From Candidatus Thorarchaeota archaeon (GTDB lineage Archaea > Asgardarchaeota > Heimdallarchaeia > Hodarchaeales > Hodarchaeaceae): 32,000 nucleotides of DNA. The position numbers and the translations under genes were made by a program. The stretch is taken from positions 30,001 through 62,000 of the forward strand of contig JBHLRO010000007.1 in assembly GCA_048882505.1 (NCBI GenBank), given 5' to 3'. Position 1 is the first letter of the stretch. Every line of letters begins with the position of its first letter. The notes beneath the pieces were generated by a model that worked only from the letters and a program-made list of their open reading frames with translations, had not been told where the DNA came from and ran no database searches. Below, in pieces: positions 22,907 to 24,237 of this stretch.

Positions 22907-23515
22907 ATGAAAACGAACTCTTTGATAAGAATAATCATCCCTTCAATACTCCTATTGGGTACCGCTTCTGCGTTTTTAGTGACAGCATTAAGCGCTCCTC
23001 CGGTCAATGCTTCAATTAATGAACTGAATAGCCCTACAAGTCTTGCATCAGACATGTTCCTCCATATAGAGGGGATCGACGGTGAATCCAAAGATGCGAA
23101 TCATCAAAATTGGATTGAAGTGCTCTCTTACTCCCACAACATTCAAGGTTCCTATGATGTATCTACAGGACGCGCTACTGGTGTCGTGAAACATAGTCCA
23201 CTTCGAATTACCAAAACTGTGGATAAAGCAACACCGATAATAACTCAAAAATGTGCTATTGGCGCTAGTATCCCAGCGGTGACGTTGGAATTCTGGTCTG
23301 GAGGAAGCTCCTCACACAAATTCCTGATGATTGAACTCCAAAATGTGATAATCACTTCTGTTCAAAGTTATGGATTAGTCGACGACCATCCGACTGAAAC
23401 AATATCCTTCAATTATGAGAAAATCCAGTGGACCTATACGGAGTATGATTCAGCTGGCAATCCCATGGGCGATGTTGTATCAGGTTGGATTACTTGGAGC
23501 GGCTCAGCTGTTTAA
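22907..23515 (+). CDS. hcp: Hcp1-family (T6SS tube-like) protein with an N-terminal signal peptide
   Basis: SDMFLHIEGIDGESKDANHQNWIEVLSYSH...HSPLRITKTVDKATP...FLMIELQNVIITSV...PTETISFNYEKIQWTY is the Hcp pattern. It is preceded by about 45 aa with basic n-, hydrophobic h- and VNA-type c-regions. Confidence 0.88.
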   Translation: MKTNSLIRIIIPSILLLGTASAFLVTALSAPPVNASINELNSPTSLASDMFLHIEGIDGESKDANHQNWIEVLSYSHNIQGSYDVSTGRATGVVKHSPLRITKTVDKATPIITQKCAIGASIPAVTLEFWSGGSSSHKFLMIELQNVIITSVQSYGLVDDHPTETISFNYEKIQWTYTEYDSAGNPMGDVVSGWITWSGSAV

Positions 23516-23535
23516 CTTAGAAATGTTGAGCGGCA

Positions 23536-24237
23536 ATGAAAAAAACTTCGTTCTTATTACTGAAGGTTTTCGTATTCACACTCGTTCTTTGGAATGCTCC
23601 GATATTATCCGCTGGGACAATTAATGCCAACTCTTTTGCAGGTACAATAGTGGGCACTAATGAGAAAAGCGTCGAGATCGTTGAAGTAGTTCAAACTGGG
23701 CCAGCGATAGCAATAACGCTGGAATATAATTTGAATACCACTTCTCAGTTGGAATCAAATGAATTACTCGCCGTTTTGGTTGTTTTTGGAATTCAAGAAG
23801 ATCCCTTTGTGATCAAAGCTGCAATGTTGTTCCTGCAGACAGTGGAAGGACAATATTATCTCTTTTGGACGCTTGGGGATCCCTATCGACAAGCCCAAAA
23901 TTGGCAAATAGGAAATGAAAATGAACATTTTACAGTTGACGCTGAGTTATTGACCCTGTTCTTCATTGAGTTTTCAGATATAAACAATCAAAACTTGGAA
24001 ACGACTGTGATGGCCCAGATTACGGCAAATTTCGAACTAAATCAGCAAGCAAACGATTTTAGACCTATCCTAGATCAATTCATTGGCAGATTACCCATTT
24101 CTTATCCTTCGAAATCCTATCCAACCACATCCTCAGAATCCCCTAATGTCTCGTCTGGATTTCCAATCCTTTCCGCAATTGGTGTTTTCCTTTTAGTTCT
24201 TCTTTTAAAGAGATTTAAAAGGAAAAAACGGCCCTGA
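23536..24237 (+). CDS. Surface protein with a signal peptide and a PGF-CTERM-like (SGF + TM + basic tail) sorting signal
   Basis: N-terminus MKKTSFLLLKVFVFTLVLWNAPILSA. C-terminus PTTSSESPNVSSGFPILSAIGVFLLVLLLKRFKRKKRP. It starts 20 bp after hcp. Confidence 0.78.
   Translation: MKKTSFLLLKVFVFTLVLWNAPILSAGTINANSFAGTIVGTNEKSVEIVEVVQTGPAIAITLEYNLNTTSQLESNELLAVLVVFGIQEDPFVIKAAMLFLQTVEGQYYLFWTLGDPYRQAQNWQIGNENEHFTVDAELLTLFFIEFSDINNQNLETTVMAQITANFELNQQANDFRPILDQFIGRLPISYPSKSYPTTSSESPNVSSGFPILSAIGVFLLVLLLKRFKRKKRP

Follow-up and report, generated by a model that had tools for sequence, protein, structure and literature searches.

Hcp is generally regarded as a component that serves only contractile injection machines. 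In a type VI secretion system (T6SS) the protein carries no signal peptide, is made in the cytoplasm, forms hexameric rings that stack into tubes and is exported by contraction of the sheath, with tube stacking needing both a baseplate/VgrG seed and a sheath template. The second system of relevance here is the sorting of archaeal surface proteins by archaeosortases, for which ArtA acting on PGF-CTERM proteins in Haloferax volcanii provides the precedent and the only case in which sortase-dependent cleavage and lipid attachment have been shown (PMC6098224). The locus described in this work has features of both and is a two-gene cassette from a Hodarchaeales (Asgard) archaeon, located in a stretch of 32,000 nucleotides (contig JBHLRO010000007.1 of assembly GCA_048882505.1, positions 30,001-62,000, cited as C7:30001-62000 of the assembly), which is termed the window and numbered from its first letter. 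The upstream gene encodes an Hcp-family protein preceded by a leader, and the downstream gene encodes a partner with a signal peptide and a CTERM-like tail. With a probability of about 0.55, the cassette is a conserved two-gene surface module of Hodarchaeales and some other Asgards, in which a Sec-exported Hcp is held by a sortase-anchored partner. The novelty of this Hcp-family protein lies in its export route, its host domain and its partner. A literature search gave no paper that treats exported, orphan or archaeal Hcps, bacterial signal-peptide or lipobox orphan Hcps, proteins with six Hcp domains or Heimdall-CTERM, the last of which is catalogued in NCBIfam as a sorting signal together with its sortase.

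Gene Layout and the Hcp Domain

The features of the cassette are as follows.

22907-23515, forward strand: predicted exported Hcp-family gene, 202 amino acids plus stop (open reading frame (ORF), PF05638, TIGR03344, Hcp1 fold; sole Hcp of the genome)
22907-23011, forward strand: Hcp leader, codons 1-35, with n-region MKTNSLIR, an h-region of ~20 residues containing Pro12 and Gly18, c-region SAPPVNA and a predicted cut before Ser36
23012-23050, forward strand: Hcp linker, residues 36-48, variable and predicted to be disordered (low model confidence, low identity)
23051-23479, forward strand: Hcp β-barrel domain, residues 49-191 (high model confidence; Hcp1 chains matched by Foldseek at probability 1.0)
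23516-23535, no strand: 20-bp intergenic spacer read from the sequence, probable operon
23536-24237, forward strand: gene of the predicted surface-anchored partner, 233 amino acids plus stop (ORF; no Pfam or NCBIfam family for the body, hence no catalogued family)
23536-23613, forward strand: partner signal peptide, residues 1-26 (...APILSA/GT, the slash marking the putative cleavage site), from the sequence and a model helix at residues 4-19, kept in the family
23668-24105, forward strand: partner β-sandwich ectodomain, residues 45-190 (family alignment; predicted local distance difference test score (pLDDT) ~90)
24106-24150, forward strand: partner Ser/Thr/Pro-rich linker, residues 191-205 (alignment; pLDDT <50 at residues 193-209)
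24151-24234, forward strand: partner tripartite C-terminal tail, SSGF-hydrophobic helix-KRFKRKKRP, Heimdall-CTERM-like (NF045529 is the best NCBIfam match, below cut-off)

A preliminary description of the window, made from its sequence alone, had listed a complete Hcp1-type domain, a leader, a linker and a neighbor 20 bp away with a signal peptide and an SGF tail, and each of these statements is correct. The 202-amino acid product is a true Hcp-fold protein. It matches the Pfam family T6SS_HCP (PF05638) over residues 51-177 with an E value of 5.8e-37 and 127.3 bits (cut-off 23.5), covering positions 1-129 of the 129 in the profile, and TIGR03344 with 86.2 bits (cut-off 58.9) and an E value of 2.3e-24. 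The AlphaFold2 model calculated from 31 sequences has a mean pLDDT of 82, with the barrel at residues 49-191 mostly above 90, and shows a helix at residues 6-28 followed by a low-confidence stretch at 30-44 (pLDDT <50). Foldseek places the model with the Hcp1 structures 4w64, 4tv4, 8yun and 1y12 (E ~1e-15, probability 1.0, template modeling (TM) score to target 0.76-0.90). The amino acid identity of the domain to solved Hcps is 29-36% and the GIDGES start motif is present, and the loop following strand 2 is shorter by 4-5 residues than in canonical Hcps. The domain begins at ...LASDMFLHIEGIDGES and is preceded by MKTNSLIR, an uncharged stretch of 25 residues, the sequence VNA/S and a low-confidence linker of 13 residues. 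No second Hcp is present in the whole genome. A look for RNA sequencing runs that cover positions 22700-24400 of the window returned none, the stretch being represented only in DNA or contig runs.

The host assembly comprises 4.32 Mb with 41% guanine plus cytosine (GC), is 94.6% complete and is not closed. The GC fraction of the cassette is 0.40-0.42 compared with 0.41 for the genome, a match which indicates that the cassette has long been resident there. Genes for a RadA-type recombinase and an XPD helicase lie within the window, and the named homologues of both cassette proteins come from Hodarchaeales or Heimdallarchaeota metagenome-assembled genomes (MAGs), two closed chromosomes among them. 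Recent horizontal transfer and contamination are excluded by the genome-like GC content, the archaeal RadA and XPD genes on the contig and the occurrence of the cassette in closed Heimdall-type chromosomes.

Linkage and Distribution of the Pair

The partner gene is placed directly downstream of the Hcp gene in every related locus that was read, with spacers of 11-47 bp, and the flanking genes differ among genomes. In a search of the genus with the partner profile, each of the 18 genomes with an Hcp has a full-length partner next to it, whereas in the four without an Hcp the profile matches nothing or just a C-terminal tail. This arrangement recurs in more than 25 independent genomes and is therefore not due to chance. 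Both genes are under purifying selection. A gene for an S-adenosylmethionine (SAM)-methyltransferase upstream of the cassette (window 21738-22547, reverse strand; L009:2499-3272) is common only to the closest relative, the Hcp of which is 91% identical. All other genomes differ in their flanks, and the two-gene cassette therefore moves as a unit. The functional tie between the Hcp and its CTERM-type neighbor proposed in the preliminary description is thus carried by strict adjacency and co-occurrence, with weak support added by co-folding (see below).

A survey that took in 400 genomes of the phylum shows Hcp in 17 of the 21 genomes of the genus besides the host, with scattered occurrences in three further families, and pairs detectable with the partner profile are also present in two other Asgard families. 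The module, being rare in the phylum, is not a core component of the envelope.

Several further arrangements were seen in these genomes. Some genomes of the genus contain a second, divergent Hcp-partner pair (L045:2493-3808, L046:1666-3089, L047:1493-3020 and L048:2399-3883) in which the GIDGES motif of Hcp is altered (LTGETQG, ITGANQ, IEGQS) and the partner is longer (223-291 amino acids). One closed chromosome has a partner-like frame (G065:C1:1008590-1009063, forward strand; E 6e-48 over profile positions 84-230) that is remote from both of its Hcp genes, a solitary or truncated third copy. In the family labeled f6, three loci (L037:1206-4301, L040:1-3053 and L043:179-2918) combine a leader-bearing Hcp with a secreted protein of 700-820 amino acids.

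The Leader and the Start Codon

The leader follows one plan in 30 homologues, with MK..R, a helix of ~20 residues containing an invariant glycine and then Q-x-[V/A]-[N/D/T]-[A/T/S]-[S/T], and Met1, Lys2 and Gly18 are invariant or nearly so. The mean pairwise identity is 41% for the leader, 29% for the linker and 51% for the Hcp domain. The ratio of nonsynonymous to synonymous substitution rates (dN/dS, Nei-Gojobori) for codons 1-35 against five orthologues is 0.16-0.28, as compared with 0.11-0.32 for the domain where computable. The methionine at the canonical Hcp start (ATG 23054) is an alanine in several orthologues. The conserved leader, the purifying selection and the substitution of this methionine mean that the true start is not at 23054, and the long leader-bearing ORF is, from these comparisons, a real gene with a translated and conserved leader. 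The start at 23054, which would give a cytoplasmic Hcp of 153 amino acids, had been named beforehand among the outcomes that would refute an exported Hcp. It was checked and does not hold, the upstream 49 codons being conserved as protein under purifying selection, and the long ORF proposed in its place is borne out by a dN/dS like that of the domain and by the lack of conservation of the internal methionine.

A twin-arginine translocation (Tat) signal is excluded as no conserved twin-arginine is present in the leader, and a class III (pilin-type) signal is excluded as there is no glycine or alanine at position -1 before the helix; the leader is therefore of the Sec type. Small residues are kept at positions -3 and -1 of the predicted cleavage site ([V/A]-x-[A/T/S]). 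The uncharged stretch of 25 residues falls within the range of 15-28 residues observed for the signal peptides of the Heimdall-CTERM proteins of this genome, which precede clear A-x-A sites.

Absence of Contractile Injection Machinery

No gene of a T6SS or of an extracellular contractile injection system (eCIS) is present within the 32-kb window. In the host genome, at its 94.6% completeness, no match was found to TssC (PF05943), Phage_GPD/VgrG (PF05954), PAAR (PF05488) or gp25 (PF04965), nor to Phage_sheath_1 (PF04984), the gp19 tube (PF06841) or Baseplate_J (PF04865). Across the 22 genomes of the genus, single-contig assemblies included, TssC, the phage-type sheath (PF04984) and gpD/VgrG are matched in none. 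The same machinery profiles matched Escherichia coli and other control genomes as expected. The Hcp thus appears to be an orphan without contractile machinery as far as the assemblies allow, in agreement with the preliminary description, and the genome-wide search that had been proposed for a full T6SS or eCIS elsewhere found none within the same bounds. The Hodarchaeales protein differs from an Hcp that lacks a signal peptide and is exported by a sheath in both respects, as a conserved and translated leader is present and sheath genes were not found.

The Partner and Its Putative Sorting Signal

The partner ORF starts 20 bp past the Hcp stop codon. Its product begins with a signal peptide, and its last residues are SSGF, a run of 17 hydrophobic residues and KRFKRKKRP, directly before the stop codon. 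Its homologues occur only in Hodarchaeales/Heimdall-type genomes. The 18 aligned partners share a signal peptide, a domain of ~150 residues, a Ser/Thr/Glu-rich linker of very variable length and a tail of the form [T/S][P/S]GF-helix-basic, and the motifs LFW.LGDP, W, ENEHF, LTL.FIE and DFRPILDQF are invariant in the ectodomain. An N-x-S/T sequon (LNSTSQL) is conserved in the ectodomain, and the Ser/Thr-rich linker is much longer in homologues than in the partner of the window. From these sequence features the partner is probably secreted and glycosylated.

In the predicted structure the partner forms a β-sandwich at residues 45-190 (pLDDT ~90) with the signal helix at 4-19 and residues 193-209 below a pLDDT of 50. 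The body of the protein matches no Pfam or NCBIfam family, and profile searches of Pfam and of PDB sequences with the partner family gave nothing meaningful. A Foldseek search of the model against the PDB returned nothing at E ≤1e-3, the best match having an E value of 1.8e-3 and a TM score below 0.3, and a search of a structure atlas gave TM scores of at most 0.48, including a row carrying CBM9_1 with a TM score of 0.41 to the partner. In the VIA wide search the best match is the C-terminal region of glucodextranase (1ulv, Z 6.5), followed by 4jpq (Z 5.2) and CBM9 (1i82, Z 5.1), values which lie in the range of common β-sandwiches. Language-model neighbors named DOMON and Glucodextran_C score 0.83-0.84, a range often reached by shuffled sequences. 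These weak leads toward sandwiches of the DOMON, CBM9 or glucodextranase-C type stay within the range of chance or of a common fold. A match of the partner family to DASH_Dad4 (0.061) was discarded as noise, and rows for botulinum-toxin binding domains (TM <0.25, root mean square deviation >11 Å) were set aside.

The preliminary description had read the end of the neighbor as a CTERM-type sorting signal, and this reading is refined here. NF045529 (Heimdall-CTERM) is the best NCBIfam match of the partner, scoring 14.9 bits when the tail is searched by itself and 14.0 bits (rank 26 of 31) when the whole genome is scanned. Heimdall-CTERM tails above the cut-off are present on ten proteins of the genome, with a consensus of [T/S]PGFE, a helix and RRKR. 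The partner tail has the same layout, which is kept in all 18 aligned homologues; eight of the 18 match NF045529 at E ≤1 (best 2e-4), and the tail of the partner at locus L004 reads TPGFE and reaches 19.4 bits, the highest score printed and still below the cut-off. Because of the shared layout, the family matches and the TPGFE tail, the partner tail is treated as a divergent Heimdall-CTERM in this sequence-based assignment. Some 15 further proteins of the genome have tails of Heimdall-CTERM layout below the threshold.

The cognate enzyme is encoded in the same genome:

C18:53451-54044 = L007:1411-2169, reverse strand: heimdallarchaeosortase (NF045528; ACTG, N..R and H motifs)

This protein matches NF045528 with 267.9 bits against a cut-off of 130, and a heimdallarchaeosortase is present in all 22 genomes of the genus, nine of which have two copies above the cut-off. 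With the Pfam model PF09721 (Exosortase_EpsH) no sortase was detected, a blank that is due to the sensitivity of this model, and TIGR04125 scored no more than 19 bits. By analogy with ArtA and PGF-CTERM, the partner would most likely be cleaved by the sortase and anchored to lipid, and a plain C-terminal membrane helix would result in the same topology.

Proposed Assembly at the Cell Surface

In the preferred reading, that of an exported Hcp held by an anchored partner, the Hcp would cross the membrane through the Sec translocon by means of its N-terminal leader rather than through a contractile sheath. Cutting after VNA35 would leave a mature Hcp of ~167 residues with a short flexible N-terminal extension. 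The partner would be secreted and its xGF-helix-basic tail processed by the heimdallarchaeosortase, placing the ectodomain on a lipid-anchored Ser/Thr-rich stalk, and the exported Hcp, probably as a hexameric ring, would be retained at the surface by binding to it. The steps that we infer comprise cutting of the leader, processing by the sortase, assembly of a ring, binding of the Hcp to its partner and retention at the surface.

A ring is suggested by the intact Hcp fold and by the form most often taken by the large exported relatives, in which a single chain holds exactly six tandem Hcp domains (21 of 38 proteins of at least 700 amino acids). The model of the Hcp with its neighbor that had been proposed earlier was run with Hcp residues 36-202 and partner residues 40-195, each as a family alignment, in three runs with three controls. 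The interaction prediction score from aligned errors (ipSAE) is 0.37 (runs 0.42, 0.31 and 0.37) against 0.02 for the best control, a result classed as weak support; this mark is reached by 58 of 80 solved complexes and two of 110 mismatched pairs, and at an ipSAE of 0.60 or less by just seven of the 80 solved complexes together with both of the passing mismatches. The runs share at least 76% of contacts and the partner pLDDT is at least 81. Given the strict linkage of the genes, the co-fold modestly raises the odds that the two proteins bind. The complex may serve in the capture of ligands or proteins, as a surface scaffold or lattice, or in cell-cell contact. A more specific arrangement would be a two-component surface lattice or canopy with six-fold Hcp rings as the self-associating outer units and the lipid-anchored, glycosylated partner as stalk, a picture that is speculative and improbable.

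Several observations weigh against the surface module as proposed. The tail of the partner in the window falls under the 24-bit cut-off of NF045529, with 14-15 bits and SGF-P in place of PGF-E. The co-fold support is weak and gives no usable interface. The h-region of the Hcp leader has a length sufficient for crossing a membrane, and for a signal peptide the leader is conserved to an unusual degree. Most Asgard families are without the module, Hcp being present in 26 of the 400 genomes, and the partner is not universal, as in family f6 the downstream gene encodes the large secreted protein that is missed by the partner profile.

Alternative Explanations

The alternative that survives best is that the leader is left uncleaved, in which case the Hcp would be a type II membrane protein tethered through the N-terminal helix of its leader. 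Its domain would lie outside on ~20 linker residues beside the C-terminally anchored partner, both proteins then being fixed in the membrane. The uncharged stretch of 25 residues and the model helix could span the membrane, conservation of the leader comes close to that of the domain with Gly18 invariant, and [V/A]-N-[A/T]-[S/T] at the same time forms a sequon for N-glycosylation in ~24 of the 30 homologues, a feature that would be sensible only if this segment is retained. However, Pro12 and Gly18 within the helix and the Pro-rich c-region are typical of cleaved signals, the small -3/-1 residues are kept even in homologues without the asparagine (VTAS, ADAS), other exported proteins of the genome have leaders of equal length ahead of clear A-x-A sites, and a single ring would need room for six membrane helices. 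Cleavage after Ala35 is most likely on the basis of these sequence features, and an uncleaved leader, although a serious contender, is considered unlikely.

The Hcp could also be freely released, as a carrier or chaperone ring or as a decoy against T6SS-bearing bacteria, with the neighbor as its cargo, receptor or protective protein. The lumen of T6SS Hcp rings binds small effectors, the ectodomain of the partner has a small size (~150 amino acids), and the weak co-fold signal is compatible with binding of any kind. Against this, the partner matches no family that resembles toxins or enzymes and is predicted to be anchored on the surface of its own producer, no polymorphic or immunity-array signature is present, and both genes show ordinary purifying selection, making free release improbable.

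The preliminary description favored extracellular rings or nanotubes forming a non-contractile surface appendage, and an exported Hcp that polymerizes into nanotubes or a filament rooted on the partner draws on an intact fold close to that of the tube-forming Hcp1, on the stacking of some Hcps in crystals and on a partner that could act as base. The nanotube and appendage part of that proposal is unsupported, as the genomes are without the baseplate, VgrG seed and sheath on which stacking in the T6SS depends, and the flexible extension of ~13 residues at the mature N terminus and the shortened loop after strand 2 also stand against a tube, which is accordingly regarded as highly improbable. 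Already close to refuted is a cytoplasmic 153-residue Hcp from ATG 23054 serving a T6SS or eCIS encoded elsewhere. This ATG does sit at the canonical Hcp start and the genome is not closed, but the 49 upstream codons are conserved as protein, the methionine is alanine in several homologues, and sheath, VgrG, PAAR, gp25, gp19 and baseplate genes were not found in the genome, nor TssC, sheath or VgrG in any of the 22 genomes of the genus.

Relatives and Origin of the Exported Hcp

An exhaustive search of 1.84 billion representative proteins yielded 8,896 Hcp homologues. Among the 140 nearest non-Asgard single-domain homologues, a simple heuristic assigns a signal-peptide-like leader to 87, a lipobox to four and no leader to 40. 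The phylogeny against bacterial Hcps that had been suggested earlier was calculated as a quick maximum-likelihood tree of 182 rows and 146 columns, unrooted and with few columns for so many rows, in which a branch with a Shimodaira-Hasegawa approximate likelihood ratio test (SH-aLRT) value of 95 brings together every one of the 30 family members, 10 of the 12 Asgard copies that are more distant, and seven unlabeled metagenomic sequences, six of which have N-terminal hydrophobic leaders. The next supported shell around the Asgard branch is composed mostly of bacterial signal-peptide Hcps. Two f6 Hcps (L037 and L040) fall outside the main Asgard branch and may represent a separate acquisition. 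As the nearest bacterial relatives mostly carry export signals, Sec export is probably older than the Asgard clade, and the description of the protein as an Hcp domesticated in an archaeon is too narrow.

Among named bacteria the nearest are a Planctomycetaceae MAG, which encodes a multi-Hcp giant, and a Dehalococcoidia MAG, which encodes a lipoprotein Hcp. A match in Caldimonas is a canonical T6SS Hcp. The best-scoring homologues are giants of 1,000-2,164 amino acids with six tandem Hcp domains (for example L034:473-5503, from the Planctomycetaceae MAG), which look like covalent pseudo-hexameric rings. Many of the six-Hcp giants have an N-terminal LE.R.LL(A/S) motif, which is typical of secreted Planctomycetota proteins. 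The Dehalococcoidia locus (L035:2303-2995, forward strand) encodes an Hcp of 230 amino acids with a lipoprotein-type leader (...LTMLAAC/D) and an acidic linker, has two small lipoprotein genes upstream and belongs to a monoderm lineage. It is another exported Hcp outside any T6SS.

Comparison with Known Systems

The S-layer of the Sulfolobales is built from a membrane-anchored SlaB stalk and a non-anchored SlaA canopy (PMC6098224). The likeness to the Asgard pair, an anchored stalk protein with an exported, self-associating and unanchored protein, serves as a working analogy only, as there is no relation in sequence or fold and the Asgard module is patchy (18 of 22 genomes of the genus) and rare in the phylum. 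The Hodarchaeales are the archaeal group placed closest to the eukaryotes. Were the lattice arrangement true, the archaea most closely related to eukaryotes would have turned an injection-tube protein to a new use, in an S-layer-like or receptor array. The cassette also offers an easily expressed protein pair as an entry to the nearly unstudied cell surface of this group.

Compared with the archaeosortase substrates (PGF-CTERM with ArtA in H. volcanii, and Heimdall-CTERM), the partner has the same xGF-helix-basic C terminus following a Ser/Thr-rich stalk, and its genome encodes a cognate heimdallarchaeosortase. The partner differs in having a tail below the cut-off and an ectodomain in no catalogued family, and an Hcp is not known as the partner of any other archaeosortase substrate.

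The bacterial orphan Hcps with a signal peptide or lipobox and the six-Hcp giants of the Planctomycetota are the closest non-Asgard relatives in sequence and are likewise predicted to be exported. They differ from the Asgard protein, which has a leader of the type MK..R-helix-VNAST, and a CTERM-anchored partner was not seen beside the bacterial examples examined. A second, unstudied extracellular job for the Hcp ring is suggested, and this may be widespread, as most of the nearest bacterial relatives carry export signals.

The T6SS Hcps, represented by Hcp1 of Pseudomonas aeruginosa (1Y12) and Hcp1 of Acinetobacter baumannii (4W64), belong to the same family and have the same fold over the whole domain, including the GIDGES start. 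The Asgard Hcp differs in its Sec-type leader and linker and in the shorter strand-2 loop, and its hosts are single-membrane organisms without the sheath, spike, baseplate and membrane complex, a sortase-type surface protein taking the place of the T6SS genes. The comparison points to an Hcp fold that takes the general secretory route out of the cell in hosts with just one membrane and without an injection machine, where it is kept together with a dedicated, probably anchored partner.

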